A DNA stretch of 64,000 nucleotides from Candidatus Azotimanducaceae bacterium (lineage in GTDB: Bacteria; Pseudomonadota; Gammaproteobacteria; Pseudomonadales; Azotimanducaceae). The translations under genes and the position numbers were made by a program. The stretch is taken from the NCBI GenBank assembly GCA_047629195.1, contig JBLHWY010000011.1, positions 3,061 to 67,060 on the forward strand, read 5' to 3'. Below the pieces are notes generated by a model. The model did not search any database and was not told the origin of the DNA. It worked only from the letters and a program-made list of their open reading frames with translations. This document shows, piece after piece, positions 27,811 through 48,260 of the stretch. The stretch's first letter is position 1; the number at the start of each line of letters is the position of its first letter.

Positions 27811-28815
27811 ATGATAACGATGCCAGTGCCACAAAGAACCGCACTAACACTACCTGACCCGCGAGGGGTTTTTGAGACCATAGAACTAGCTAAATGGGCC
27901 GAAGCTGAAGGTTATGATGATCTGTGGTTTGCGGATAGTTCCGGTGTTGATGCGCTCACAACTGCTGCGGCAGTGGCACTGAATACTAGTCGCTGTCGGA
28001 TTGGAACCGCCATTATACCCGTGTTTTCTCGAACGCCAGCCGTTTTGGCCTCCACGGCCCATGTACTACACCAACTCTCGGGCGGAAGATTTATTCTCGG
28101 TTTGGGTTCTTCTAGTCAAACGATGATGGAAAATTGGCACGGGCTACAATTTGAAAAGCCACTGTCACGTGTGAAAGAAACGACTCAGTTGATTAAAAGT
28201 ATGCTGAGGGGCGAGAAGAGTGATTTTGATGGCACCACGGTAAAGAGTAAAGGCTATCGGCAGCTGCCTCTGGAAGACGGTGCTCAGCCTGTCTATATGG
28301 CCGCTCTTAGAAGCAAAATGCTTGAAGCGGCGGCGGAGTTTAGTGACGGAGTCATTCTGAACTTGTTTCCGAAAGACGCATTGCCAAAAATGATGGAGCA
28401 CATCAAAATTGGTGCGGAAAGGGCAGGTAAGAAATTAGAAGACATTGAAATAGTTTGCCGACATCAAGTAATTGTTAGTGATGATAAAGAAAATGCGAGA
28501 AACTTCATTCGTCGTGGCTTTGCTCCCTATTATGCGACTCCTGTATACAATTCGTTTCTTGCGTGGGCTGGATATGAAGACGTTGCGAAAGAAATTTCAG
28601 AAGGTTGGGCGGCCAAGGATAGAGATCGCACGACGGGCGCATTAAGTGACCAATTGGTTGATGACATTGCAATTCTAGGTTCGATGGGCGAATGCCATGA
28701 CCGTATTCGAGAATATGGTGAAATGGGTATTACAACGCATATCATTTCATGCGTATCTCCTAAAGAATCGCAGGCAACTTACGAAGCATTTACGGGTAAG
28801 AACTTTAGCTTCTAA
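27811..28815 (+). CDS. LLM-class F420-dependent oxidoreductase
   Basis: Luciferase-like pattern ELAKWAEAEGYDDLWFADS...IGTAIIPVFSRTPAVLA...GGRFILGLGSS. It is adjacent to fbiC. Confidence 0.8.
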   Translation: MITMPVPQRTALTLPDPRGVFETIELAKWAEAEGYDDLWFADSSGVDALTTAAAVALNTSRCRIGTAIIPVFSRTPAVLASTAHVLHQLSGGRFILGLGSSSQTMMENWHGLQFEKPLSRVKETTQLIKSMLRGEKSDFDGTTVKSKGYRQLPLEDGAQPVYMAALRSKMLEAAAEFSDGVILNLFPKDALPKMMEHIKIGAERAGKKLEDIEIVCRHQVIVSDDKENARNFIRRGFAPYYATPVYNSFLAWAGYEDVAKEISEGWAAKDRDRTTGALSDQLVDDIAILGSMGECHDRIREYGEMGITTHIISCVSPKESQATYEAFTGKNFSF

Positions 28816-28886
28816 CCAGCTATTGAGTGTTTTCTACCTGTGAAGTTTTGCCAAATTAGCTTTAAAAATTCATAAAGGACTAAAAA

Positions 28887-29921
28887 ATGAAATTAGGAAT
28901 ACTCAGCGGCTACTCTGGCCGAAATATGGATCTTGGTATCGAGCGGATTCAAGCGGCTGAAAGCATGGGCTATGAGTCGGTTTGGACAGCAGAAGCCTAT
29001 GGTTCTGATGCTGTAACCCCAGCAGCATGGATTCTTGCTAATACTCAGAAGATGAAAGTTGGTACTGCGATCATGCAAATGCCCGCAAGAACACCGGCAT
29101 GTACCGCAATGACTGCGATGACGTTGAATCAGCTATCAAATGGCAGATTCATTTGTGGTCTTGGGGCTTCTGGACCACAAGTTGTCGAGGGATGGCACGG
29201 AGTTGCGTATGGCCGGCCGATCACACGAACACGAGAATATATTGAAATTCTTCGAATGATAATGGCCCGCGAAGGTAAGGCTGAATACGAAGGTTATCAC
29301 TATAATTTGCCATACAACGGTGAGGATGGAACCGGACTTGGAAAGCCTTTAAAGAGTATCCTTCAAGCTGACACAAGCATTCCGATCTACACTGCATCAA
29401 TTACTGAAACTGGTCTTGCGACTAGCGCAGAACTTGCGGATGGCGTGTTCCCAGTATGGATGAACCCGGACCGATACGACGTATTTGAACCTAGTATCAC
29501 TAAGGGGCTGAAGAAAGCTGACAAAACATTAATGGATTTTGATATAGCACCATTTGTGACCTGCATACTTGGTGATGATGTAGAGGCTTGTCGAGCACCA
29601 ATTAAGGGAAGTATGGCTCTGTACATCGGTGGTATGGGAGCAAGAGATAAGAATTTCTATAATGATTACGCTAAGGCGCTTGGCTTTGAAGATGCTGCTA
29701 TCAAAATCCAAGACCTGTTTCTTGCTGGCAAAAAAGATGAAGCGGCCGCCGCGGTTCCTGACGAATTAGTTGACGCAACTCATCTTGTTGGACCGAAAGA
29801 GAAAATTGTCGAGCGTCTGCAAGCTTGGAAAGCTGCAGGTGAAAAAGGACATGTTGGTAATATGTTGATTGGCGCCGGTCAAACAGAAGCGTTAGAGCTC
29901 ATTGCCAGCGAAATGTTATAA
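28887..29921 (+). CDS. LLM-class F420-dependent oxidoreductase
   Basis: AAESMGYESVWTAEAYGSDAVTPAAWILANTQKMKVGTAIMQMPARTPA...NGRFICGLGASGPQVVEGWHG. Confidence 0.8.
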   Translation: MKLGILSGYSGRNMDLGIERIQAAESMGYESVWTAEAYGSDAVTPAAWILANTQKMKVGTAIMQMPARTPACTAMTAMTLNQLSNGRFICGLGASGPQVVEGWHGVAYGRPITRTREYIEILRMIMAREGKAEYEGYHYNLPYNGEDGTGLGKPLKSILQADTSIPIYTASITETGLATSAELADGVFPVWMNPDRYDVFEPSITKGLKKADKTLMDFDIAPFVTCILGDDVEACRAPIKGSMALYIGGMGARDKNFYNDYAKALGFEDAAIKIQDLFLAGKKDEAAAAVPDELVDATHLVGPKEKIVERLQAWKAAGEKGHVGNMLIGAGQTEALELIASEML

Positions 29922-35155: not shown

Positions 35156-36325
35156 ATGTCAGATGTATATATAGTTGAAGCTTGTAGAAGCCCGAATGGT
35201 AAACGAGGTAAAGGTCTAGCCGGCATGAAGCCAGCAGACTTGCTTGGTGCTATACAAAAAGCTGCACTGGAGAGGAGTGGCGTCGCTCCTGAAAAGGTAG
35301 ATCAAGTCATTGGTGGCTGTGTGTCACAGGTTGGAGAGCAGACTTTCAATATCGCTCGAATAGCTTGGCTCTCCCAAGGACTCCCGCTTGAAGTGGCAGC
35401 GACAACCGTTGATTCTCAATGCGGTTCTAGTCAGCAAGCGACATCGATGGGGGCATCTATGATTGGCGCCGGGGTGGAAGATATTGTGATGGCTTGTGGT
35501 GTTGAAATGATGAGCCGTGTTCCGCTGGGGTCTGCGATGAAAGACGGATCTCCGATGGGAGAAAAGTACGCCGACTATTACCAGCCTACTAGCCAGTTTA
35601 TGGGTGCGGCAATGATTGCTGAGGAGTATCAAATTACACGTGCGGACACGGATCAATTTGGTCTTGAAAGCCAGCAGAAAGCGATCGCGGCTTGGGCAGA
35701 AGGTAGATTTGATCGAGAAGTTGTTCCAATCGAAGCGCCAGTACTCGGTGAAGATTTTAAACCGACTGGGGAAACTAAAATTGTTTCTAAAGATGAAGGT
35801 TTAAGAGCGACGGATATTGAGTCGCTAAAATCACTGAAAGCGGTTCCAGGTCAGGAAATTCATACGGCTGGTAGTAGTTCTCAAATATCAGATGGTGCAG
35901 CCGCTATTATCATGGCGTCAGCAAAAGCCGTTAAAGAGCTTAATCTGAAGCCGCGCGCAAAAATTATTGCCCACACAATGGTGGGTGTCGATCCAGTGAC
36001 AATGTTAAAAGGCCCAATTCCGGCTACTCGAAAGGTGCTTGAACGAGCCGGACTGCAGTTAGAAGATATTGATATTTTTGAGGTTAACGAAGCTTTTGCC
36101 TCAGTTGTGCTTGGATGGGAGAAAGATCTCGGTGTCGATCGCGCTCGCGTAAACGTTAACGGTGGCGCGATTGCGCTAGGTCATCCGACGGGTAGTACCG
36201 GTGCTCGTTTGATTACGACTGCACTCCATGAACTTGAAAGAATTGGTGGGCGCTATGCATTGATCGCAATGTGTTGTGGTGGTGGTCTGGGTACGGGCAC
36301 CATAATCGAGCGTATCGCTGACTAG
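35156..36325 (+). CDS. Acetyl-CoA C-acyltransferase (thiolase)
   Basis: Active-site Cys context VDSQCGSSQQA. NEAFASV, NGGAIALGHPTGSTGARL and CCGGGLGTGTIIER. Confidence 0.9.
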   Translation: MSDVYIVEACRSPNGKRGKGLAGMKPADLLGAIQKAALERSGVAPEKVDQVIGGCVSQVGEQTFNIARIAWLSQGLPLEVAATTVDSQCGSSQQATSMGASMIGAGVEDIVMACGVEMMSRVPLGSAMKDGSPMGEKYADYYQPTSQFMGAAMIAEEYQITRADTDQFGLESQQKAIAAWAEGRFDREVVPIEAPVLGEDFKPTGETKIVSKDEGLRATDIESLKSLKAVPGQEIHTAGSSSQISDGAAAIIMASAKAVKELNLKPRAKIIAHTMVGVDPVTMLKGPIPATRKVLERAGLQLEDIDIFEVNEAFASVVLGWEKDLGVDRARVNVNGGAIALGHPTGSTGARLITTALHELERIGGRYALIAMCCGGGLGTGTIIERIAD

Positions 36326-36603
36326 TTAGTTCCCGTCCGTAAATACTCCTTCCTGGGTGAGTTTCGGAGACTTTTCAGATCTGTTGGTTTAAAAATCAAT
36401 AGGTTGTCGGGAAGTAACCATGGAGATGTTAAGTTTTCGGATAAGGACTAGCTATCGCCTTACTCTAAGTTCCTATCCTAGATAGGGAGGTGATAACTGG
36501 CCGATCAGCTTTAACTTAATTTGTTAAAGCTGGTCCTAAATTTGCTAAAAAGTGGTAAATTTCTTCTACAATTAAATTCAAGTTCTTTTCCTAAATTAAT
36601 GTG

Positions 36604-36652
36604 AATTGTTAGCCGCCAACGAGACGTGGCGGCTAACAATTCTATTTCTTTG
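36604..36652 (+). terminator. Orphan rho-independent-terminator-like hairpin, about 280 nt downstream of the thiolase stop
   Basis: AATTGTTAGCCGCCA (36604-36618) pairs with TGGCGGCTAACAATT (36627-36641), a 15-bp perfect stem followed by CTATTTCTTTG. Confidence 0.55.
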
Positions 36653-37100: not shown

Positions 37101-39056
37101 ATGTCGGTTTGTACAACAAAAAGTTTATGTGACACTGCGATAAACTGGTTCGGGCTGAGATCGTTGACAAAAGTTGCTTTGCTATTCTTTTCCGTCATGA
37201 GCGTTTCATTAGTATCGGTTGCGAGCGCCGAGGAAATGAGCAATGATGAAATTGATGCCGCACACGCTGAGTCCTTCTTAGGTGACGGTTATCCTTCCGC
37301 GACTGAATGTGGCGAATGCCATCCTAAACAATATAAACAGTGGTCAGTATCGCAACACGCTTATGCTCAAATGAGCCCGATCTTTAATGCGATGCAAGCA
37401 ACTGTGCTTAAGTTTACCGCCGGTACCAATGGTGATTTTTGTATTCGTTGTCATACGCCCGTTGGGATGAATCTCAATGAAGATGTCTTCATGAGTAATA
37501 TTGATCGCCATCCAACATCAAGGGAAGGCGTCACATGTATAGTATGTCATCGATTAAACCAGTCATATGGCAAGGTTAGTGGCCGACTGGCGATTGAGAC
37601 CGGGCCTGTTACTTCTGCAATCTACGGGCCTCTGGGTGAGCCAGCTGAGCTAGACAACGCCATTGATAAAGGCGGTTTAGTTGTCGATAACGACAAAGCA
37701 GGTCGTAAAGTTCATGGTGAAGTTAAAGGCCTATTCCAATTAAATACCTCGGGGTTCTGTGCAACTTGTCATGATGTCAACCTGGTGAATGGTTTTCGCT
37801 TAGAGGAAGCTTTTAGCGAGTTTAAGAACAGCCCTGCCAACGCAAAAGGCGTCACTTGCCAGGATTGTCATATGGGTAAGGAGCCTGGAAAGATCCTTGC
37901 TGAAAAATCAGACCCAGATTTTTATCACAAAAATTATGATTTTGGTCCCGCCGCGAAAGTTGGAAGCCTTGACACGAAAGATCGGAAGCTAACCAATCAC
38001 ATGTTTGTCGGGCCTGACTATTCGGTATTGCCTCCTTCCTTATTCCCACTCGATATTCGGGCAATTAAGGAGGAAAGCGAGAAAGATGACGTTCGAGCAC
38101 GCGGTATGGCAACAATCCGCCAGTGGTTAGAGTTTGACTGGAAAGCAGGTTGGGGTAGCGACGACTTTGAAGACGAAGTTGATGACGATTATGAGTTCCC
38201 TGAACGATGGGCTTCGATTGATGATCGTTACGATGCACGCGAGATCATTGTTGATAATCTGAGGTTGCTCAAAGAAATTGAAATTCAACGGTTGAAGTTG
38301 CTGCAAAACGGCTACTTGATTGGAGATATCGATGTCGTCAAATCAAATTCAGACGGAATCGAATTCGCAGTTCAAGTGAAGAACGGAACCGATGGCCACA
38401 ACGTACCGACTGGTTTTGACGCCGAGAGACTCGTTTGGCTCTATGTCACAGTCACAGACGCTGATGGCAAGGTTGTAAAGACATCTGGAGACCTTGATCC
38501 GAATGGTGACTTATTAGACCTTCACTCAAGCTATGTCCACAATCACGAGCTGCCGCTAGATAAAGAGCTGTTCAGCCTGCAGTCGAAGTTTTTAACCAGA
38601 AATATCGTCGGTGGAGAAAGAGAGCAAGTGCTGCCTGTCAATTACTCCGCAAGCCCATTGATCTTCTTGCGACCTTCGCGTAGCCCAACAGTATTGGTGG
38701 GACGGCCGGGTGGTGCTCGAAAGCACAAGATGGGTATTGAGCCGCTGGGCGAACGCTGGGCGAACTATACCGTCTCATCAGAACAGCTTATTTCAGGTAA
38801 GCCGCCGTTTAAAGCAGTTGTTCAGCTGAAGGCTGCAATGGTGCCGGTTAACCTCGTAAATATTATTAAAGATGTAGGCTTCGACTACAACTTAAGTGCA
38901 AGGGAAGTTGCAGATGTGCTTGCTAATGGGCACGTTGATGAAAACGGCGATGTCGTAATATGGGATGAAGATTCCGATGATCCCGTTGATAATCAAGTGG
39001 CAGGACATCAAGTAATTTGGGAAAAAGAAGTTGATCTGTCCGCGGGTGGACGGTAG
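37101..39056 (+). CDS. Periplasmic pentahaem c-type cytochrome (651 aa)
   Basis: Signal-peptide-like ALLFFSVMSVSLVSVASA. Five CxxCH motifs (CGECH, CIRCH, CIVCH, CATCH, CQDCH). C-terminal domain contains GHNVPTGFDAERL. Confidence 0.85.
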   Translation: MSVCTTKSLCDTAINWFGLRSLTKVALLFFSVMSVSLVSVASAEEMSNDEIDAAHAESFLGDGYPSATECGECHPKQYKQWSVSQHAYAQMSPIFNAMQATVLKFTAGTNGDFCIRCHTPVGMNLNEDVFMSNIDRHPTSREGVTCIVCHRLNQSYGKVSGRLAIETGPVTSAIYGPLGEPAELDNAIDKGGLVVDNDKAGRKVHGEVKGLFQLNTSGFCATCHDVNLVNGFRLEEAFSEFKNSPANAKGVTCQDCHMGKEPGKILAEKSDPDFYHKNYDFGPAAKVGSLDTKDRKLTNHMFVGPDYSVLPPSLFPLDIRAIKEESEKDDVRARGMATIRQWLEFDWKAGWGSDDFEDEVDDDYEFPERWASIDDRYDAREIIVDNLRLLKEIEIQRLKLLQNGYLIGDIDVVKSNSDGIEFAVQVKNGTDGHNVPTGFDAERLVWLYVTVTDADGKVVKTSGDLDPNGDLLDLHSSYVHNHELPLDKELFSLQSKFLTRNIVGGEREQVLPVNYSASPLIFLRPSRSPTVLVGRPGGARKHKMGIEPLGERWANYTVSSEQLISGKPPFKAVVQLKAAMVPVNLVNIIKDVGFDYNLSAREVADVLANGHVDENGDVVIWDEDSDDPVDNQVAGHQVIWEKEVDLSAGGR

Positions 39057-39129
39057 CTATTTACTAGGCAACTTCTTCTAGGCGACTTAGAGCTATACTG
39101 GGTAGTTTGAGTCATATTTGTGTTGAATT

Positions 39130-39181
39130 TAGGCAGTATCGCCAGATTGGTTCGAGGAATTTGCTCATAACCAATCTGGCG
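39130..39181 (+). terminator. Rho-independent terminator after the pentahaem cytochrome gene
   Basis: CGCCAGATTGGTT (39130-39142) pairs with AACCAATCTGGCG (39159-39171), a 13-bp stem followed by TTTGTTGTTT. Confidence 0.65.
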
Positions 39182-39216
39182 TTTGTTGTTTAAAAAGAAT
39201 AATAGGAAAGTGGACG

Positions 39217-40671
39217 ATGGTAATGCGGAAGGATCAGCAGGTGCAAATAGGCAAGGGAAATGTGACGAGGTTCTTGAATCTACTCCCCTGTTTTATTCTT
39301 GGTGCGGGATTGGCGATTTCAAACATTGCACAGGGTGCGGGTTATAGTATTGGACCAGATGGTAAAAGAAGCAGCCGTATTTCTGACGAAGCCGTCGCGG
39401 TGCTCGATCTCGAAAGTATGCCGAGTCGACCCAATCCAATATTGGAGTTAGGTGGCGATTTTCTTGGGCCCGGTAATATTCGCAGAGGTTACGAGTTGCC
39501 CACGGGGGCCGTCTGGCAGCCCACGTTGTTGGTTTTTGGTACTCACCGAAGCGCTCTGCAGACGTTTCATTCCGACGATGAGACAACTGCTGAATTTGCG
39601 AATCGGTTGGATCTTTTTGCAAATTTGCAGCTGACCGCGTCTGAGAGGTTTGTCTTAGGGTTACGCCCGCTAGATGATGAAGGAGAATTTACTTCTTACC
39701 AGTTTGAACCAGACAATGGCTTGCCCGACGATACTGGGTGGCAAGACGAGACAAACGTCAGGGTCAATACTTTCTTTTTTGAAGGAGACTTTGGTGAAAT
39801 TTTTCCTAATTTGTCGAAAGATGACCGAAAAGCGACGGATTATGGCTTTGTGGTTGGACGTCAACCAGTTAACTATCAAGCCGGTTTACTGATTAATGAC
39901 AACATTGATGCAATCGGCGTTACTCGAAACACTTTATTACCGAAAGGCGGATCCGATCTACAGATTACCTTTATGTATGGTTGGAATGAAATTCATCGTG
40001 GTGACAGAATAGAAAGAGAAAACCAAAACCTATATGGTTTGTTCGTCAGCACCGATACGCCCAAAGCAACACAAAATTTCGACTTCCTTTACATGCAAGA
40101 TCGTAATGGTGATACAGACGGTTTCTTCTGGGGTGTCAGTGATGTTCGGAGAATCGGTCACTTTAATCTCTCTAGTCGAATTGTTGGTTCGCAGGCGCTG
40201 GATAAAGAGTCCTCGGCAATTCAAGATGGTACGCTGGTGTTTGCCGAACTATCGTGGACACCTGCTTGGACAGACGACAACATATACATTAACGGGTTCG
40301 CTGGTATCGACAATTTCAGGTCTGCTGCTCGTGATCCGGCGACCGGTGGTCCACTTGGCAGGACTGGCATTCTGTTCGCGGCAATTGGCATGGGGAGATA
40401 TGGTGCCCCTTTGAGCAATGGTGCAGACGGTTCAGTTGGTGGTGCAATTGGGTATCAGATGTTTATTAATCCGATTGTTAATCAATTCATTTTCGAATTA
40501 GGCGCTAGAAAAGGAACCAGAGCAGGGGACGATACATCAATCGCTGCAGGGGCGCGTTACCGGCATGTATTTGGGCAGCATATTGTCGCTCAGGTTGATG
40601 TGTTTGGTGCTCTAAACGAATCCCGGCCCGATTCTTACGGTGGTAGATTTGAATTACGGGTGGAGTTTTGA
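39217..40671 (+). CDS. Putative outer-membrane beta-barrel protein
   Basis: N-terminal signal-like LLPCFILGAGLAISNIAQGA. Alternating Gly/aromatic-rich segments. C-terminus ...GGRFELRVEF with a terminal Phe, typical of OMPs. Confidence 0.55.
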   Translation: MVMRKDQQVQIGKGNVTRFLNLLPCFILGAGLAISNIAQGAGYSIGPDGKRSSRISDEAVAVLDLESMPSRPNPILELGGDFLGPGNIRRGYELPTGAVWQPTLLVFGTHRSALQTFHSDDETTAEFANRLDLFANLQLTASERFVLGLRPLDDEGEFTSYQFEPDNGLPDDTGWQDETNVRVNTFFFEGDFGEIFPNLSKDDRKATDYGFVVGRQPVNYQAGLLINDNIDAIGVTRNTLLPKGGSDLQITFMYGWNEIHRGDRIERENQNLYGLFVSTDTPKATQNFDFLYMQDRNGDTDGFFWGVSDVRRIGHFNLSSRIVGSQALDKESSAIQDGTLVFAELSWTPAWTDDNIYINGFAGIDNFRSAARDPATGGPLGRTGILFAAIGMGRYGAPLSNGADGSVGGAIGYQMFINPIVNQFIFELGARKGTRAGDDTSIAAGARYRHVFGQHIVAQVDVFGALNESRPDSYGGRFELRVEF

Positions 40672-40856
40672 TCCAACAACCTGTAGCTTTACGTACTTGT
40701 AATTTTACGTATTACTAGTAGTCTTAAACAGTAATAACAGACAGCAGATAATGTGACCGGAACGGCGAGTTCCAGAGGCAATCATTTCTAGTTTGTCGAA
40801 GAAATAATAATAAAAATACATTTGATGAATTTTAGAGACAAAAGGCCTAAGCATTT

Positions 40857-42140
40857 ATGATGGCAGCACTGTTGGACAATTTGTGGGTCGGTGGGGCTAT
40901 TATAGTGATAGCCGTTACCGCATATGTACTTGTAGGCGTCACTGGCGCGTTAGCGCGGTTGGCTAACGAGAGACGCGCCAGAGAACAACAGGCAGAACAG
41001 TTTGCTTTGCAGATCAGCGGGGCAAGAAAGCAACAGCAAAAAGAAACGGGTAAATCACTTTCCTGGACCGGTACCCGAAAGTTTACAGTCGCTACCAAAC
41101 ACGTTGAAAGCACTGATGGTCAAGTGTGTTCTTTCTACCTCAAGCCCCATGACGAGAAAGCAATCCCATCATTTGACCCCGGGCAGTTTTTAACTTTTGA
41201 ACTAGACATTCCTGGAGATGAAAAAGACAGTAAGGTTAAACGCTGTTACTCGTTATCTGATGCGCCAAAAGATGGCGTATATCGTGTTTCTATTAAGCGT
41301 GTTCCCGGTCCTCGAGATCAACCGGAAATTCCAGCCGGCCTATCATCTAATTTCTTTCATGACTCGGTCAGCGAAGGCGATATATTGGATGTTCGAGCAC
41401 CGTCAGGAAAGTTCTTCCTGGATATGAACAGTGATCGTCCTATCGTCTTGATTGGCGGTGGAGTTGGACTCACCCCTGTGATGAGCATGCTCAATGCGGT
41501 GATAGCATCGGGTGGCGATAGGGAAGTTTGGTTTTTCTACGGCGTGAGGAATAGTGCTGAACATGCCATGAAAGAGCACCTCGAGCAGGTGGCTGCAGAA
41601 CATTCAAATGTCCGTATGAAAATTTGTTACAGCGCACCTTCTGACGATGATGTAATCGACGAAGACTACCATCATAAATCTCGTGTAGGTGTGCCGCTTT
41701 TTAAAGAGGTCTTACCTTCTAACAATTATCAATATTTAATGTGCGGTCCACCACCAATGATGGAATCATTGGTTTCCGATCTAGAGGAATGGGGTGTACC
41801 TAAACCTGACATAATGAGAGAAAGCTTCGGTCCTGCGTCCGGTCGTAAAGCGCCCGCGATTAAAGCCAATCCAGAGGCGGACGGTCCTGCCGTTTCCTTC
41901 AAAAAGTCAGGAAAATCAGCCCCTTGGGATCCTGCTTTTGATAGTCTCGTGAAATTTGCGGAAGCAAATGGTTGTGATATACCTTATGCCTGTTTGGCGG
42001 GCAATTGCGGTACTTGTGAAACGACCATAATTAGTGGTGAAGTCGACTATCAGGGCAACGACACTGATTTTGAACCAGAGAAAGGGACTTGCCTCGCTTG
42101 CTCCTGCGTTCCTAAGGGACCGATTGAGCTCGATGCATAA
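40857..42140 (+). CDS. Membrane-anchored FAD/NAD(P)H oxidoreductase with a C-terminal plant-type 2Fe-2S ferredoxin domain
   Basis: N-terminal TM segment GGAIIVIAVTAYVLVGVTGAL. FAD motif RCYSLSD. NAD(P) motif LIGGGVGLTPVMSM. CGPPPMM. 2Fe-2S ligands CLAGNCGTCE...CLACSC. Confidence 0.8.
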   Translation: MMAALLDNLWVGGAIIVIAVTAYVLVGVTGALARLANERRAREQQAEQFALQISGARKQQQKETGKSLSWTGTRKFTVATKHVESTDGQVCSFYLKPHDEKAIPSFDPGQFLTFELDIPGDEKDSKVKRCYSLSDAPKDGVYRVSIKRVPGPRDQPEIPAGLSSNFFHDSVSEGDILDVRAPSGKFFLDMNSDRPIVLIGGGVGLTPVMSMLNAVIASGGDREVWFFYGVRNSAEHAMKEHLEQVAAEHSNVRMKICYSAPSDDDVIDEDYHHKSRVGVPLFKEVLPSNNYQYLMCGPPPMMESLVSDLEEWGVPKPDIMRESFGPASGRKAPAIKANPEADGPAVSFKKSGKSAPWDPAFDSLVKFAEANGCDIPYACLAGNCGTCETTIISGEVDYQGNDTDFEPEKGTCLACSCVPKGPIELDA

Positions 42141-42291
42141 GTTCAAGTGATCTATTACCAAATGTAGTAATGAATAGATTGAACCGATCGAATTAAACTG
42201 AGATCGGTAATATAATGAGATTTTTAAAACTAGGTCTGCAAATATAACCCTGCAGACAACGATTACGACAAACCCAGAGAGGTGTTTCACA

Positions 42292-43407
42292 ATGACAGCC
42301 ACGTTACTTCCAAAAAATATTCCTGCAAATGGAATAGGAAAAGCATTCAAGGTGTTGATAGCATCCTGCGTACTTATGGCTTTTAGTGCGTCCGTTTTTT
42401 CAGCAACAGCCGGAACATGGTTGACTGAAGATGAAGAAAAAGCGATGGCCGCGAACATTGTTGGTCCTACCAAGAATGATGACAATTGTTCTTCGTGTCA
42501 TGCTTTAGAAACTGAAGCCTGGGAAAACACGCGTCATTTCGCCACTTTTAAAGATCGTCATCGAACTGACCGAGCAAAAGAAATTCTTGAAAACATGGGC
42601 GAGAGGAGCATGAAACGTGCCGCAGATTGTCGCCAATGTCACTATACTTCTGAATTGAAGAATGACAAATTACGAGCATCTTTTGGTGTGAGTTGTGAAT
42701 CATGTCATGGTGCGGCAAAAGAATGGCTGCCAATCCACTCTAAAGGCGGCGGCGATCTTAGCGCCTCTGATCTTAAATGGGGTACAGGTAAATCTCAGGA
42801 TCCAGCGAGCAGGTTGAAACGACTAGCGGCAGCTGAGGCCAAGGGCATGATCAATTCTGAAATGATTTATGATATCGCTAAAAACTGTTTTGGCTGTCAT
42901 ACCGTTCCGAATGAAAATATTGTCAATACGGGCGCTCACAAAGCCGGAAGCGATTTTGATCTTGTTGCTTGGTCTCAGGGCGAGATTCTCCACAACTTCT
43001 CCAGTTCCGCCGGTGCACCAGATACCCCCAACAACAGACCTTCGACTGCAGAGCAAAAACGACGCCTCTATGTCACAGGCTTAATGGTTGACCTTGAAAC
43101 TTCTCTAGCCAATATCGGTAATGTTAAAGAGAAGGGTGGCAATTTCCACGTGGCAATGGTTGAGAGAGCTAATAAGGTTCGAGGCCAATTAGATGCTGTG
43201 TTAGGTGCTGTTGCGATAAGCGAAATCGCTGCTAGTCTTGGCGCAGTACCTTCACCGATTCAGGAATCTACGATGGTTGGCGCAGACCTCCCGATGAACT
43301 TGGGCATGGCGGCTAAGGCTTTTCTTAATTCACATGACGGGACAGCGCTATCTGCTCTTGATGGCCTGATGCCTACTGAGTATAAAGGTTCACCACACAA
43401 ACAGTAA
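42292..43407 (+). CDS. Periplasmic tetrahaem c-type cytochrome
   Basis: Signal-peptide-like LIASCVLMAFSASVFSA. Four CxxCH motifs (CSSCH, CRQCH, CESCH, CFGCH). Confidence 0.8.
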   Translation: MTATLLPKNIPANGIGKAFKVLIASCVLMAFSASVFSATAGTWLTEDEEKAMAANIVGPTKNDDNCSSCHALETEAWENTRHFATFKDRHRTDRAKEILENMGERSMKRAADCRQCHYTSELKNDKLRASFGVSCESCHGAAKEWLPIHSKGGGDLSASDLKWGTGKSQDPASRLKRLAAAEAKGMINSEMIYDIAKNCFGCHTVPNENIVNTGAHKAGSDFDLVAWSQGEILHNFSSSAGAPDTPNNRPSTAEQKRRLYVTGLMVDLETSLANIGNVKEKGGNFHVAMVERANKVRGQLDAVLGAVAISEIAASLGAVPSPIQESTMVGADLPMNLGMAAKAFLNSHDGTALSALDGLMPTEYKGSPHKQ

Positions 43408-43474
43408 TATGAGCTGAGCGTGTTGTGTTACACAAGAATATAAGCAGCATTATTAATAGCTGTAATTAAAAAGG

Positions 43475-45352
43475 TTGGACGCATTGGCAGAAGTGCAGGC
43501 TCAGTTACAGACTCAAATGAGAGACAAGCCCAAGCGTTGGGATTTGCCATTCAGTAGAGATTTACCGAATGAGATCGAGTGCAGGGATCTAACGGAAAAA
43601 GAGCTTGATGATCTACTTGAAATCGAGCCGTTTTCTAAAATGGATGCCTCCAAATTTCCGAAGTCTTTACCGCTTCGAGAAATTCTACGCAACGATACAC
43701 GGACACGGGTCTATCACAACGGTGATGCTGTTGTTCGTGTAGGTGATTACGGCAATTCTGCTTTCATGATTCTAGAAGGTGATTGCAGAGCCGTTATTGA
43801 AGGTCTTGATCCAAGTGCTTTGGGTCGTGGTAAAAAACAACAACGAAGCGCACTCGACTCTTTAATGAGTCTTTTCTCCAATCCAAAATCTCCCGAAGTC
43901 AGGGATCCGAGCTTGTATCCGCAGTTTGCCGAAGCGCAAACTGCTAAACCTTCTTCAAGTTCAGGTAGAGTTTTTGCACAGGATGTGCCCAACGTACTTG
44001 AGCTTTTCCCTGACACCTATGAAAAAACCCAAAACAATGTCATGCCTCAAGGTAGCCTGTTTGGCGAACTAGGAGCACTTGGCCGGGTTCAGCGAGCAGT
44101 CACTGTGCTTGCTTCCGATCCGACCCGTACGAAACTGTTAGAGATTCGTTGGCAGGGACTAAGAGACTTAATGAAGTTTGATGGCGCGCTAAGAGCGCAC
44201 GTCAACCAATTGTTTCGTTCAAGAGGATTGTTAGGTGCACTTCAAAGCTCACCTTTACTGCAATCTGCGAATCTCACGGCAGAACAGTGGGAACAAGTTG
44301 TTGCGGAGGCTGAGTTCGAGACCTTCGGTTCCTATGACTGGTATGGTAGTTATCAACAGCTACGTCAAAAAGACGTAGATCCTTTGTCTCAAGAACCCAT
44401 TGTTTCGGAAAAAGGCCAGTATCCTAACGGTCTTGTACTCGTCCGCGCAGGCTTTGGTCGACTGAGCCGACAGCACGGTTATGGTGAACATACATTTGGG
44501 TACTTGGGTAAGGGCGATGTCTATGGTCTGTCTGAGCTCATGCACAATGCTGAGTCAGACACTCAGATGGAGCTACAAGCGACCTTGAGGGCTGCTGGTT
44601 ACATGGACGTTGTTCGAATACCGACTCGAACATTTGAGAAGTTGATTTACCCATCGCTTAAGAATGCCCAGTCGCGAGGCGATCTTCCAAACTCAGTTGG
44701 GGGAGAAACCCTAGATAATCGAAGGGATGAGACGATATCTTTACTCGATGTAGATACGAGCAAAGCTGATGTAAAAAAGGCCGAGGCGAAAAAGGCCGAC
44801 GCTGAAAAGAATAATCTCGATCCATCCATGATGGAGTTTTTAGTAGAAAACCGAGTGATCAACGGCACCCAGACGATGCTCATTGATCTGGATCGATGTA
44901 CACGTTGCGATGAGTGTGTCAAAGCATGCGCCAGTGGTCACAGTAACAATCCACGTTTTGTACGCCATGGACGAATTCATAGCCATTATATGGTTGCCAA
45001 CGCCTGCATGCATTGTGAAGATCCTGTTTGCATGATTGGTTGCCCTACCGGCGCTATTCACCGAACAGAAGGTGGTGGTGAAGTTGTAATAAACGATCTG
45101 ACTTGTATTGGCTGCAGCACGTGTGCCAATAGTTGTCCCTACGAAAATATTAGAATGGTCAATGTTAGAGATCAGTCGAATGAGGTCATGCTAGATCCGC
45201 AAAAAGGTCGACCCATTGTAAAGGCTACGAAATGTGATTTATGCGTTAGTCACCATGGTGGTCCGGCGTGTGAGCGAGCATGCCCGCACGATGCCCTAAA
45301 GCGAGTGGACATGAATGATTTGGACTTGCTGTCAGATTGGTTTAATCGATGA
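43475..45352 (+). CDS. Cyclic-nucleotide-binding-domain protein fused to a DmsB/NrfC-like 4x[4Fe-4S] ferredoxin module
   Basis: cNMP signature GSLFGELGALGRVQRAVTVLA, plus a second degenerate domain. Four Cys clusters: CTRCDECVKAC, CMHCEDPVCMIGCP, CIGCSTCANSCP and CDLCVSHHGGPACERACP. No twin-arginine or other signal sequence at the N-terminus. Confidence 0.8.
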   Translation: MDALAEVQAQLQTQMRDKPKRWDLPFSRDLPNEIECRDLTEKELDDLLEIEPFSKMDASKFPKSLPLREILRNDTRTRVYHNGDAVVRVGDYGNSAFMILEGDCRAVIEGLDPSALGRGKKQQRSALDSLMSLFSNPKSPEVRDPSLYPQFAEAQTAKPSSSSGRVFAQDVPNVLELFPDTYEKTQNNVMPQGSLFGELGALGRVQRAVTVLASDPTRTKLLEIRWQGLRDLMKFDGALRAHVNQLFRSRGLLGALQSSPLLQSANLTAEQWEQVVAEAEFETFGSYDWYGSYQQLRQKDVDPLSQEPIVSEKGQYPNGLVLVRAGFGRLSRQHGYGEHTFGYLGKGDVYGLSELMHNAESDTQMELQATLRAAGYMDVVRIPTRTFEKLIYPSLKNAQSRGDLPNSVGGETLDNRRDETISLLDVDTSKADVKKAEAKKADAEKNNLDPSMMEFLVENRVINGTQTMLIDLDRCTRCDECVKACASGHSNNPRFVRHGRIHSHYMVANACMHCEDPVCMIGCPTGAIHRTEGGGEVVINDLTCIGCSTCANSCPYENIRMVNVRDQSNEVMLDPQKGRPIVKATKCDLCVSHHGGPACERACPHDALKRVDMNDLDLLSDWFNR

Positions 45353-46173
45353 TTACGTTTAAGAAGAGACGAACGTGGGGTCTAACGATATCAGTCATTC
45401 TAGGCTCACTGTTTGCCATCGTGATGCTTGCCTATTCGGTGATGCTAAATAACACAGCCTTTTTCTCTGGGTGGGTTTTATTCACCTTGATGATTTTCCT
45501 AACACTTTACAATGCCCGAAAAAAACTGACTTACCCGCCTTTATTTAAATCTGCTAGCTGGATGCAATTTCACATATACGCAGGACTTTTGTCTTTTCTA
45601 GTATTCTTTTTTCATACGGGATGGCGATTGCCTACCGGGATGTTTGAGTCGACCTTGTACTTGATGTTTATTGTCTTAGCGGGTTCCGGATTTATAGGTT
45701 TGTATCTCACTAGAACCGTGCCTAAAAGCCTGGCGCACAGAGGCAACGAGGTTATCTATGAAAGAATCCCTCGTTTCGTAAAAGAATTGAGAGAGCAGGC
45801 CGAGGCATTAGTGATTGAGTCAGTTGGTTTTAACGATTCAACAATCTTATCTGACTACTACAGTGAAAATTTAGCAGAATATATGTCGCGCCCGAGAAGA
45901 TTTGGGTTGCACGTTTTTATGGTAGATAGAATGCGTAATGAGTTCCAACGCGAGTTAGGTGCGCTACACCGCTACATGAACGAAGAAGAACGACGGGTCG
46001 CAACACAACTTTCAGACGTACTTGTGCTCAAAGACGATTTGGATTTTCATTACAGCCGACAAGGTATGTTGAAAGGCTGGTTGTTTCTTCATGTACCACT
46101 AACCTACGGCCTACTAATCTTTGCTGCTGCCCACATGGTGCTTGTGCACGCGTTTTATGGGGGATTGTCGTGA
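45349..46173 (+). CDS. Five-TM membrane protein with two His-x13-His pairs (candidate dihaem b-type transmembrane electron carrier)
   Basis: The start overlaps the upstream stop (ATGA). TM3 is FHIYAGLLSFLVFFFH. TM5 is LHVPLTYGLLIFAAAHMVLVH. A soluble loop of about 120 aa separates TM4 and TM5. Confidence 0.7.
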   Translation: MITFKKRRTWGLTISVILGSLFAIVMLAYSVMLNNTAFFSGWVLFTLMIFLTLYNARKKLTYPPLFKSASWMQFHIYAGLLSFLVFFFHTGWRLPTGMFESTLYLMFIVLAGSGFIGLYLTRTVPKSLAHRGNEVIYERIPRFVKELREQAEALVIESVGFNDSTILSDYYSENLAEYMSRPRRFGLHVFMVDRMRNEFQRELGALHRYMNEEERRVATQLSDVLVLKDDLDFHYSRQGMLKGWLFLHVPLTYGLLIFAAAHMVLVHAFYGGLS

Positions 46174-48260
46174 GAATCCCATTACAGGAAATTGGTTTCA
46201 GAGATAGTGTTTATGAACGACCCAATCAGGATTGGGTTTGTGGTTGGTCTGCTGATGGTAATCCGTGTTTGCACGGTCCCGACGGAGATGGGCTTTGCTC
46301 TACCCAAGCTCAAGCTAACTGTAGTCCTGTAAAGGAAGCAGACAGGTGGGTTTGTACCCGAGCTGAAGCTTTTGGCGGTCCTTGTACCGACGGTCCGCAA
46401 CCGGATGGCAGTTGTGCCTGTCCCACCCCCGAACACCTCGTATGTCAACCGCAGAGAAATATCCGAGCAAAGCGTGGTCTACTCACGAAACTTGTGACGA
46501 TACTGTCATTAGGATTCTTAGTCCTGATGTTCAGCGGCTCATGGAGCCAAAGTTTTGTCTCCCCGGGTACACTCAGCCCATCGCATTTGGCGATTGAGGG
46601 AGTTGATGGAGGTGACAATTGTTCGTCGTGCCATCAGGCTGGCAATACCAATTGGAGCACATGGCTGAGCCTCGCGCTAAAAAGCTCTGATGCCGAAAAT
46701 ATGCATGATACTAGCGCAACGTTGTGTCTAGATTGCCACTTTAAAGATGATGAAGAGGGGCTTGCTCAGTCTCATTTTGTACACGGTGTGGCACCTTCAC
46801 TGCTTGAAAAAATCACGCTTGAGAAGACGTTAGTAGATTCTGATGGTGCTGCCAGTAGTGCCACTGAAGGTCGACTCATGGTTGCTAAGCTAGTGCATGG
46901 ACCTAAGGAAAATTCGACCGGTGAAATTGCCTGTGCAACCTGTCACCAAGAGCATCGTGGGTTGGAACATGATCTCCGTCAAATGGGTGATTCTCAATGC
47001 CAGTCTTGCCACAAGTCTTCTTTTAACAGCTTCAACGACGGCCACCCTCAGTTTACGCCCGTCGAGCGGTTAAATTCTGGTATCTCGTTTGACCACTCAA
47101 AGCACCAAGAGCGATTTGATGGTGGCGAGCTTGTCTGCGGAAATTGTCACGAGGCAGATTCATTAGGCAGGACCATGAATGTTAAAGCCTTTGAAAGCAC
47201 CTGTGAGGGCTGTCATGAGCAAGGTTCTGATGATCATCACGGTGATGCGCTTAAAAAGAATCCATTGTTATTACTGCAACTACCAGAAGTTGAATTTGAA
47301 GGTGATGTTTATTGGCCCAGTGAAAATGCTTTCGGCGAAGCACTAACGCCAATGATGGCAATGCTCTTAGCTGGAGACGATGAAGCGCTGCCAATAATCG
47401 AATCTATCTATGACGAAGACGGGGCCGCTGGCGATTTATATGAGTGGTTGATAGAAACTGACGACAATGATGAACCGGAACTGAGAGAAGAGTTTGCCGG
47501 TGCGCTGAAGCGATTGGTCGCAGATCTTGCTGATTATACTGATGACGGAGATAAGGCCCGAGTTACGCGGCTAGCTAAAGCGTTAGGTGCAATCGAAAGC
47601 GATCCAAATGTTAGAAGCATGGCTGATGAGCTCGCATCCGCAAATTTTGTGATGCAAAGCTTCAAGCAGCGATATCTTCCGCAATTATCAGAGGATCTTG
47701 CCGGTGAAGAGGTTTCTGCAGATGATGACGAGCAACCTGAAACACAATGGATGACCTCGTCAACGATGAGTGGTTGGCGCGTAGATTCTGATGAAGGCAC
47801 CATTAGCTACCGTCCGGTTTCTCATGCCGATAGCCTGATGAAAAATTGGATTGATGCACTAAAGGTTCATAGTACTAAAACAGTGCCGGAAGGAACTGAT
47901 GATGCGACTTTAGCGAGAGCTAACTTGAGGCAGACGCTCTATAGCGAGCTAAAAAACGACTTCAATGCATGTACCAAGTGCCATACTGAGCAGGATAACG
48001 CGATAAATTGGAAAGCAGCAGGTAGAGCGACGGGCTGGTCTGGTTTTGCTAAATTTGATCACAGTCCTCATATTGCTATGCTGCCTGGTCAGGAAAGCTG
48101 TACAACCTGCCACATGCTTAATACAGAAAGTGGTCAAGAAGAGAGTTTGCCCAGGGGCTTTATGCCGCATGAAAATGAACGTTGTGAGTCTTGTCATGCA
48201 CCTGGACGCGCGAATAATACGTGCCTAAACTGTCACCAGTATCACGAGCATCGGCCTTAA
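46170..48260 (+). CDS. Membrane-anchored decahaem c-type cytochrome with an N-terminal Cys-rich domain
   Basis: The start overlaps the upstream stop (GTGA). Ten CxxCH motifs (CSSCH, CLDCH, CATCH, CQSCH, CGNCH, CEGCH, CTKCH, CTTCH, CESCH, CLNCH). TM anchor LVTILSLGFLVLMF follows RNIRAKRG. Confidence 0.85.
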   Translation: MRIPLQEIGFRDSVYERPNQDWVCGWSADGNPCLHGPDGDGLCSTQAQANCSPVKEADRWVCTRAEAFGGPCTDGPQPDGSCACPTPEHLVCQPQRNIRAKRGLLTKLVTILSLGFLVLMFSGSWSQSFVSPGTLSPSHLAIEGVDGGDNCSSCHQAGNTNWSTWLSLALKSSDAENMHDTSATLCLDCHFKDDEEGLAQSHFVHGVAPSLLEKITLEKTLVDSDGAASSATEGRLMVAKLVHGPKENSTGEIACATCHQEHRGLEHDLRQMGDSQCQSCHKSSFNSFNDGHPQFTPVERLNSGISFDHSKHQERFDGGELVCGNCHEADSLGRTMNVKAFESTCEGCHEQGSDDHHGDALKKNPLLLLQLPEVEFEGDVYWPSENAFGEALTPMMAMLLAGDDEALPIIESIYDEDGAAGDLYEWLIETDDNDEPELREEFAGALKRLVADLADYTDDGDKARVTRLAKALGAIESDPNVRSMADELASANFVMQSFKQRYLPQLSEDLAGEEVSADDDEQPETQWMTSSTMSGWRVDSDEGTISYRPVSHADSLMKNWIDALKVHSTKTVPEGTDDATLARANLRQTLYSELKNDFNACTKCHTEQDNAINWKAAGRATGWSGFAKFDHSPHIAMLPGQESCTTCHMLNTESGQEESLPRGFMPHENERCESCHAPGRANNTCLNCHQYHEHRP

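Follow-up and report, generated by a model that had tools for sequence, protein, structure and literature searches.

The gene studied here, ptdE, lies in a 64,000-nucleotide stretch of the Candidatus Azotimanducaceae bacterium contig JBLHWY010000011.1, hereafter the window. Its product joins two cyclic-nucleotide-binding (CNB) domains to a four-cluster ferredoxin in a single polypeptide. The gene stands fifth in a row of seven genes read in one direction (37101–48260, +), which match the ptdABCDEFG operon named for ‘penta/tetra/deca-haem’ (Elbon et al., bioRxiv 10.1101/2023.11.21.568154) in gene order, domain content and CxxCH counts (5/4/10). The published PtdE occupies the same operon position, with the same penta-, tetra- and decahaem neighbours, the same FAD/NAD(P) oxidoreductase and the same small membrane protein. 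Membership in ptd is assigned by this match to the published description, together with the homology of the window proteins to clusters that share the phyla and habitats of the published ones. In the literature search, no other name or characterisation of the fusion or the operon appeared beyond the Elbon et al. preprint. The features are collected in Table 1.

Table 1. Position of the ptd genes and of the parts of PtdE in the window (aa, residues of the 622-aa form of PtdE)
Feature	Position	Strand	Description
ptdA	37101..39056	+	651 aa, exported pentahaem c-type cytochrome
ptdB	39217..40671	+	484 aa, exported; putative porin (label from the preprint)
ptdC	40857..42140	+	427 aa, membrane-anchored FAD/NAD(P)H oxidoreductase with C-terminal [2Fe-2S] domain
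ptdD	42292..43407	+	371 aa, exported tetrahaem c-type cytochrome
ptdE	43484..45352	+	two CNB domains and four-cluster ferredoxin; longest open reading frame from 43475
N-terminal motif (R)PxRWDxPF	43523..43555 (aa 14-24)	+	conserved
CNB-A	43631..44239	+	Pfam cNMP_binding; split by a conserved ~79-aa insertion
CNB-A insertion	43805..44041 (aa 108-186)	+	family-specific, with conserved residues of its own
CNB-A phosphate-binding cassette	44051..44113 (aa 190-210)	+	canonical cassette, GSLFGELGALGRVQRAVTVLA
CNB-B	44267..44668	+	Pfam 32.7 bits; degenerate cassette at 44513-44602
Charged variable linker	44669..44848	+	poorly conserved; low predicted local distance difference test score (pLDDT) at aa 409-423
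Ferredoxin domain	44849..45319	+	predicted 4x[4Fe-4S], HycB/HydN/DmsB type; four Cys groups, Fer4_11
Cys group 1	44897..44929	+	C472/475/478/482, CxxCxxCxxxC
Cys group 2	45005..45046 (aa 508-521)	+	C508/511/516/520, CxxCx4CxxxCP
Cys group 3	45104..45139 (aa 541-552)	+	C541/544/547/551, CxxCxxCxxxCP
Cys group 4	45233..45286 (aa 584-601)	+	C584/587/596/600, CxxCxnCxxxCP
ptdF	45349..46173	+	274 aa, 5-helix membrane protein, putative dihaem-b cytochrome
ptdG	46170..48260	+	decahaem c-type cytochrome: Cys-rich N-terminal domain, transmembrane anchor, periplasmic haem domain

The open reading frame 43475–45352 (+) is confirmed in the window and begins with TTG. An in-frame TAA at 43463–43465, 12 nt upstream of 43475, blocks a longer N-terminus. 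We regard the TTG at 43484 as the likelier start, because the resulting 622 aa equals the length of the database representative P0001, which is identical to the window protein, and because AAAGG stands 9–10 nt upstream. Residues are numbered in this 622-aa form, and the choice between the two starts leaves the finding unchanged. The spacing of the genes is tight from ptdC through ptdD, ptdE and ptdF to ptdG. The ptdE stop overlaps the ptdF start by 4 nt (ATGA), which implies translational coupling, and the ptdG start overlaps the ptdF stop by another 4 nt (GTGA).

In the C-terminal part of PtdE, four conserved cysteine groups (16 Cys) imply four [4Fe-4S] clusters, and cofactors would occupy all four predicted sites. 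An alignment of 68 homologues shows 15 of the 16 cluster cysteines to be invariant, and the remaining one, C587, is at least 90% conserved. The Pfam model Fer4_11 scores 39.2 bits on PtdE against a cut-off of 26.2, and further Fer4 models also match. In contrast, PtdE was given two [4Fe-4S] clusters in the preprint (bioRxiv 10.1101/2023.11.21.568154), whereas the window sequence carries the four conserved groups.

A profile search of all Protein Data Bank (PDB) sequences placed HycB3 of the hydrogen-dependent CO2 reductase (HDCR) at the top (7qv7_A, E 1.8e-23). It is followed by the ArrB/ArxB-type 6cz7_B, HycB4, Escherichia coli HycB (7z0s_B) and the aldehyde-oxidoreductase polyferredoxin 8c0z_C, and NarH is also matched (E 5e-11). 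The best ferredoxin models of NCBIfam are AegA with 68.1 bits (cut-off 1003), HydN with 67.8 (260) and DmsB with 61.1 (214). The named NCBIfam equivalogs that we considered for PtdE (HydN, AegA, DmsB, DsrO, NrfC, HybA, TtrB and others) were all rejected, with scores far below their cut-offs. Most of these relatives are cytoplasmic, namely HycB3, HycB4, E. coli HycB, the polyferredoxin 8c0z_C, HydN, the AegA N-terminus and NarH. Such a location is therefore ordinary for a four-cluster ferredoxin of this fold, and PtdE stands within the superfamily as a cytoplasmic member of its own. An earlier reading of the DNA, made from the letters alone (the sequence-only reading), had started from the premise that such ferredoxins are normally exported by the twin-arginine translocation (Tat) pathway and sit in the periplasm. 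This premise holds only for the NrfC/DmsB/HybA/DsrO subgroup.

The N-terminus of PtdE contains neither a hydrophobic or transmembrane-like segment nor a twin-arginine (RR) motif. Across 82 species, the stop-to-stop frame leaves a median of 21.5 aa ahead of the first conserved residue. RR-like strings occur in this stop-to-stop region at three loci; each sits ahead of the likely start, and a proper hydrophobic core is missing from all of them. An upstream Tat or general secretory (Sec) signal is excluded by the TAA codon, by the missing hydrophobic segment and by the short upstream frame, which is a family-wide feature. No Tat-signal partner is encoded in the ptd operon, and PtdE lacks what defines the periplasmic subgroup (NrfC, DmsB, HybA, DsrO, HmcB). 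The cytoplasmic location proposed by the sequence-only reading is confirmed by this N-terminus and by the upstream frame. The same reading had allowed that a misplaced start might hide an upstream Tat signal; the TAA and the short frames leave no room for one.

Whole PtdE matches the Pfam model cNMP_binding (PF00027; cNMP, cyclic nucleoside monophosphate) with 57 bits (E 2e-15), the best stretch being aa 309–391. Because the whole-protein scan listed only the second CNB domain as its best stretch, the two halves were scanned separately, with the gathering score of 27.5 bits as the threshold. CNB-A alone (aa ~50–252) reaches 31.5 bits, or 37.1 bits without its insertion of ~79 aa, and CNB-B alone (aa ~262–395) reaches 32.7 bits, so that both lie above the gathering score. 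An AlphaFold2 model of PtdE built from the 68-sequence alignment has a mean pLDDT of 80.7 and a predicted template-modelling score of 0.81. Its top PDB fold matches are the tandem CNB-A/B domains of PKG I-beta and of the PKA R subunits (E 8e-15 to 1e-10).

CNB-A retains the canonical signature of a cNMP site, with Gly-Glu and Arg at canonical spacing. In its phosphate-binding cassette, G194, E195, R201 and R204 are present in all 82 species-level sequences, whose family consensus is FGEIAALSRTPRTATVFA. The spacing from Glu to Arg is 9 (E195/R204), the same as in bovine PKA RI-alpha (E200/R209). With the insertion excised, the cassette GSLFGELGALGRVQRAVTVLA aligns without gaps to the functional cGMP sites of Plasmodium PKG. 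In PKA, the cassette Arg neutralises the cyclic phosphate, and in kinetoplastid PKA the loss of this Arg goes along with ligand switching (PMC6440977). The residue following the cassette Arg varies in the family (T in 56, S in 16 and A in 5 of the 82 sequences) and is Ala in the window PtdE; because of this variation, we make no prediction of cAMP versus cGMP. The insertion in CNB-A has conserved residues of its own: E138 is invariant and R140 and D167 are each at least 90% conserved among the 68 homologues, E138 and R140 within the context PEVRD and D167 within FxQDVPNV.

The cassette of CNB-B is degenerate. L349 stands at the position of the canonical Glu, L364/Q365 stand at that of the canonical Arg, and the loop is longer than usual. 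The domain still conserves G348, E351, L368, R369 and G372. Judged by these residues, binding of a cyclic phosphate to CNB-B is unlikely. Ahead of both domains, six residues of the motif (R)PxRWDxPF (P16, R18, W19, D20, P22 and F23) reach at least 90% conservation among the 68 homologues. The motif sits in a low-confidence stretch of the AlphaFold2 model, and it may be a docking peptide.

The architecture that the sequence-only reading had described, with one clear CNB domain, one degenerate one and four [4Fe-4S] motifs, is borne out by the Pfam scores and by the conservation of the cassette and the cysteines. The Pfam comparison that it had proposed returns both families, cNMP_binding at 57 bits and Fer4_11 at 39.2 against 26.2. 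It had also conceded that all ligand-binding residues might turn out degenerate, and the four cassette residues found in 82 of 82 species speak otherwise.

The neighbour of PtdE, PtdF, is likely a dihaem-b protein. Four histidines (H75, H89, H248 and H262) are invariant in PtdF and form two pairs, 14 residues apart, in predicted transmembrane helices. PtdF homologues give weak Pfam matches to DUF4405 (22 of 51, best E 2.3e-6), to Ni_hydr_CYTB, the prokaryotic cytochrome b561 family (12 of 51), and to Ferric_reduct (7 of 51). One DUF4405 protein binds haem b (PMC11334425). The AlphaFold2 model of PtdF is confident (pLDDT 88).

Among the sequences found by an exhaustive HMMER search, we notice three single-polypeptide fusions of PtdE and PtdF. 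Two are full-length, P0254 with 843 aa and P0294 with 856 aa, and represent different 50%-identity clusters; the third, P0274, is truncated. The C-terminal parts of P0254 and P0294 match the window PtdF with 36% identity (E 9e-60) and 34% identity (E 4e-53), respectively. The two full-length fusions lie at loci L084 (693–3263) and L085 (8001–10532), and a PtdG-like multihaem gene follows each of them. On this Rosetta-stone evidence, we propose that the ferredoxin domain of PtdE docks on the N-terminal face of PtdF. This face is probably cytoplasmic, because positive charges precede the first transmembrane helix (positive-inside rule).

The fusion of CNB domains and ferredoxin is not a new architecture: it is already annotated in public databases and is the PtdE of a named operon. 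Nor is it a one-off. A word-indexed search with PtdE returned more than 2,400 matches, and the top 120 are essentially full-length with 45–88% identity. Relatives carry database names such as ‘cyclic nucleotide-binding domain-containing protein’ and ‘Fe-S-cluster-containing dehydrogenase component/CRP-like cAMP-binding protein’. The exhaustive HMMER search, over 1.84 billion cluster representatives, gave 385 clusters (50% identity) at E<=1e-30. With one genome counted per GTDB species, at least 571 species have a PtdE relative. The carriers belong to Gammaproteobacteria, Planctomycetota, Verrucomicrobiota, Alphaproteobacteria, SAR324, Nitrospinota and Methylomirabilota, and include the cultured Hwanghaeella grinnelliae, Ca. 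Uabimicrobium amorphum and Verrucomicrobia bacterium IMCC26134. The closest species genome among the matches listed is a marine gammaproteobacterial metagenome-assembled genome, with 69% PtdE identity.

Synteny was assessed by tblastn, with the seven window proteins as queries and 81 loci, each of another species, as targets; matches were counted within ~8 kb. PtdE is present at all 81 loci, PtdF at 78, PtdG at 75, PtdC at 73 and PtdD at 64, while PtdA is found at 30 and PtdB at 31. The order E-F-G is constant directly downstream; C lies directly upstream, with D between or absent. The conserved core is C-(D)-E-F-G; A/B, the putative outer-membrane pair, is accessory or has its genes elsewhere. 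All seven genes keep their order at L001–L005 and L082, among them the Phycisphaera locus (L001) and loci of Gammaproteobacteria. Since the flanking genes differ between genomes, the ptd operon behaves as a discrete module. We also observe a rearranged form at six Chthoniobacterales/Verrucomicrobiae loci (L008, L012, L016, L020, L036 and L059), where C-B-A lies on the opposite strand, divergent from D-E-F-G. The rarity of A/B within 8 kb and these rearranged loci indicate that the outer-membrane part is loosely linked to the core.

Some PtdE relatives carry additional FHA domains. FHA is a phospho-threonine-binding domain. Two stand at the N-terminus of P0244, one lies within the CNB-A insertion of P0246, and P0268 and P0334 each have one between CNB-A and CNB-B. 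Both FHA variants with an examined locus, P0268 and P0244 (L086, 8001–10577; L087, 8001–10565), belong to genuine ptd operons. Because signalling modules have been added repeatedly to the N-terminal half of PtdE, this half shows the pattern expected of a modular signal-input region and would not be a passive scaffold. As a separate observation, the Phycisphaera locus (L001, 1486–3324) has a gene for a Ser/Thr protein kinase upstream of ptdA, in divergent orientation.

Among the other products of the operon, PtdA has five CxxCH motifs, a Sec-like N-terminus and Pfam matches to Cytochrome_C554 and NapC/NirT-like families. PtdB has a signal-like N-terminus and no Pfam family even at E<=1, and it is syntenic with the PtdB of L001–L005 at 46–68% identity. 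PtdC matches FAD_binding_6, NAD_binding_1 and Fer2 in Pfam; its best NCBIfam model is the reductase module of flavohaemoprotein, and one N-terminal transmembrane helix spans aa 14–32. PtdD has four CxxCH motifs and a signal-like N-terminus, with Cytochrome_C554 at 50.4 bits. PtdG has ten CxxCH motifs and one transmembrane segment at aa 103–121.

A domain of ~100 aa (aa 1–100, window 46170–46470) precedes the anchor of PtdG and is presumably cytoplasmic. Among 44 homologues, eight of its cysteines (C24, C33, C43, C51, C62, C72, C82 and C92) are conserved to at least 95%. They are spaced every 8–11 residues, often as G-P/G-x-C. This Cys-rich domain has no Pfam match, and it could bind a metal or an Fe-S cluster or serve as a docking site for PtdE.

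On the basis of these features, we consider it somewhat probable that PtdE is the cytoplasmic subunit through which electrons and regulatory signals enter the Ptd multihaem cytochrome system. In the proposed mechanism, the membrane-anchored PtdC, with its FAD and [2Fe-2S] centre, would oxidise NAD(P)H and hand single electrons to the chain of four [4Fe-4S] clusters in the C-terminal domain of PtdE. The ferredoxin would dock on the cytoplasmic face of PtdF, whose two bis-His haems b would take the electrons across the inner membrane. The electrons would then reach the decahaem PtdG and next the tetrahaem PtdD. If a species also has the pentahaem PtdA and the putative PtdB porin, these would carry the electrons on to the cell surface.

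CNB-A and CNB-B would act as the allosteric input of this chain. We speculate that cAMP or cGMP binds to the canonical cassette of CNB-A, and that the ligand-induced change in shape alters either the docking or the distance between cluster and cofactor, which would tune the electron flux. In the lineages with FHA domains, a phospho-Thr might provide an alternative control input. Fast post-translational control is plausible, because the export of NAD(P)H electrons drains reducing power and, being electrogenic, membrane potential. The domains, their conservation, the synteny, the missing export signal and the E-F fusions are observed; the cofactor occupancy, the direction of electron flow, the nucleotide binding and the gating are what we infer. 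The idea of gating, already raised by the sequence-only reading, is strengthened by the conservation of the cassette, by the FHA variants and by the E-F fusions. In its strongest form, it would make PtdE the first case of a second messenger acting directly on an electron-transfer subunit to switch its conductance. Binding of cAMP or cGMP to CNB-A, joined in some lineages by phospho-threonine signals through FHA, would open or close the Fe-S route from a cytoplasmic NAD(P)H dehydrogenase to a transmembrane haem wire. We offer this stronger form tentatively, as possible rather than probable.

Several points weigh against the proposed role. The precedent of NarH-NarI is one of inward electron flow. 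The window PtdF matches no Pfam family, and a Foldseek search of the PDB with its model gave nothing with E<0.4 and no significant match. At the fusion locus L085 there is no adjacent PtdC; a minimal E-F-G module therefore exists, and PtdC may not be the sole donor. No cyclase or phosphodiesterase gene adjoins the ptd operon within the window. In at least one family member, P0274, a His replaces the cassette Arg. The ligand of a CNB domain is not fixed by sequence alone (PMC6440977), and the function of ptd was stated as ‘completely unknown’ (bioRxiv 10.1101/2023.11.21.568154).

The missing Arg of P0274 and the lack of an adjoining cyclase in the window would fit CNB domains that are structural relics. 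Such relics would serve PtdE as a scaffold or docking surface for PtdC, for PtdF or for PtdG on its cytoplasmic side, bind no nucleotide and leave the protein a constitutive wire. The conservation of CNB-B despite its degeneracy fits such a role, and the conserved insertion of ~79 aa in CNB-A and the RWDxPF motif fit protein-protein contacts. However, G194, E195 and R204 are invariant in 82 of 82 species at overall identities of only 44–69%, and the cassette is gapless against working PKG sites. Such invariance is difficult to account for unless a ligand similar to a cyclic phosphate is bound, and we regard the purely structural role as rather unlikely. A regulated PtdE could also respond to another nucleotide, a nucleoside or a metabolite at CNB-A instead of cAMP or cGMP. 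Orphan CNB domains switch ligand after few substitutions (PMC6440977), and the variable residue after the Arg (T 56, S 16, A 5 of 82) leaves some freedom of this kind. The kinetoplastid switch, however, combines the Arg loss with an Ala-to-Glu change (PMC6440977), whereas PtdE keeps the Arg and has Ala or Gly at the corresponding position. We see only a small chance for such a ligand.

Electrons might also flow inward in the manner of NarH-NarI. Extracellular or periplasmic donors would then feed the multihaem cytochromes, from which PtdF, PtdE and PtdC would lead the electrons to an acceptor in the cytoplasm, so that Ptd would serve uptake. The combination of a cytoplasmic four-cluster ferredoxin with a dihaem-b subunit resembles NarH/NarI (NarH, E 5e-11), and the carriers of ptd, in the preprint (bioRxiv 10.1101/2023.11.21.568154) and in our species scan, include nitrite oxidisers and further lineages that resemble lithotrophs. 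Against this stand the uphill reduction of NAD(P)+ from haem-c potentials and the lack of a catalytic cytoplasmic acceptor subunit in the ptd operon. Moreover, PtdC is an FNR-type NAD(P)H-FAD-[2Fe-2S] reductase, and this family normally oxidises NAD(P)H. Uptake thus seems to us improbable, if worth keeping in mind. PtdE is very unlikely indeed to be a CRP/FNR-type transcription factor that senses redox state, or a periplasmic DmsB/NrfC-like subunit that hitch-hikes on a partner. CRP/FNR proteins do have a CNB-like fold, and FNR has an Fe-S cluster as well, but Pfam detects no helix-turn-helix or other DNA-binding domain in PtdE, and its C-terminus is a ferredoxin. Although DmsB/NrfC-type models match this C-terminus, the operon supplies no Tat-signal partner and its c-type cytochromes have Sec-type N-termini. 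The E-F fusions, in addition, put the ferredoxin directly upstream of the PtdF N-terminus, the presumed cytoplasmic side.

Compared with known systems, the ferredoxin half of PtdE shares the four Cys groups and the fold class with HycB (7z0s_B), HycB3/HycB4 (7qv7) and HydN, the PDB profile matches ranging from E 1.8e-23 to 2.7e-16. These proteins are electron wires without a signal peptide, a role that PtdE would share by analogy. Unlike PtdE, they have no CNB domains, and their partners are hydrogenase or formate dehydrogenase modules, whereas the putative partners of PtdE are a dihaem-b protein and multihaem cytochromes. NarH-NarI offers the likeness of a cytoplasmic four-cluster subunit on a dihaem-b membrane subunit. 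NarH, however, is much larger, has no regulatory domain, and serves a catalytic subunit with molybdenum-bis(pyranopterin guanine dinucleotide) (Mo-bisPGD), with quinol electrons passing inward. As for the membrane step, NADPH oxidases and ferric reductases (FRD) and DUF4405/MsrQ proteins lead electrons from NAD(P)H through a flavin to two stacked bis-His haems b, as we propose for Ptd. In contrast to these, Ptd has separate polypeptides for the flavin module, for the haem-b protein and for a four-cluster relay that the others lack, and its output is a multihaem c-type chain; PtdF itself has five helices and no significant PDB fold match.

With the PKA R subunits and PKG, the sensor half of PtdE has in common two consecutive CNB folds and a gapless CNB-A cassette that keeps Glu and Arg. 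The effector differs: it is an Fe-S domain in cis and not a kinase. CNB-B is degenerate in PtdE, and CNB-A has the insertion of ~79 aa. In the mycobacterial cAMP-activated protein acetyltransferase, a fused CNB domain allosterically controls the catalytic GNAT domain. This enzyme resembles what we propose for PtdE, in that a CNB domain controls a covalently attached effector, the effector there being GNAT. To our knowledge, there is no characterised case of a CNB domain that controls an electron-transfer domain.

New in this work are the four clusters of PtdE in place of two, the cytoplasmic nature of the nearest solved ferredoxin relatives, the anatomy of one canonical and one degenerate CNB domain with its family-wide conservation, the C-(D)-E-F-G core, the natural E-F fusions and the FHA variants. 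The preprint treats neither the cassette and the degenerate second CNB domain nor the fusions and the FHA variants. PtdE is the would-be entry point of cytoplasmic reducing power into Ptd and the sole Ptd subunit with sensor domains. If the gating is true, it would give a physiological handle on when and why cells export electrons via Ptd. It would also constitute a new mode of respiratory control, in which a second messenger regulates an Fe-S relay allosterically rather than transcriptionally, and hundreds of species in many phyla could switch extracellular or periplasmic electron export post-translationally. If the CNB domains are inert, PtdE would be another cytoplasmic HycB-like wire, and the interest would lie only in the Ptd complex as a whole.

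The genes that flank ptd in the window belong to unrelated metabolism (thiolase, luciferase-like monooxygenases, DUF188, isocitrate/isopropylmalate dehydrogenase). A scan of the operon for promoters and terminators gave counts not clearly above the shuffled expectation, and only one hairpin stands out. It lies at 36603–36642, between the thiolase gene (35156–36325) and ptdA, with a perfect 16-bp stem and T-rich tails on both strands, and looks like a bidirectional terminator that insulates ptd from upstream transcription. Further upstream, at 27811–29921, we observe a tandem pair of genes for luciferase-like monooxygenases (Bac_luciferase, 251 and 237 bits). They are followed by FemAB-like, PhzF-like and 2-hydroxyacid dehydrogenase genes, a group that seems unrelated to ptd.

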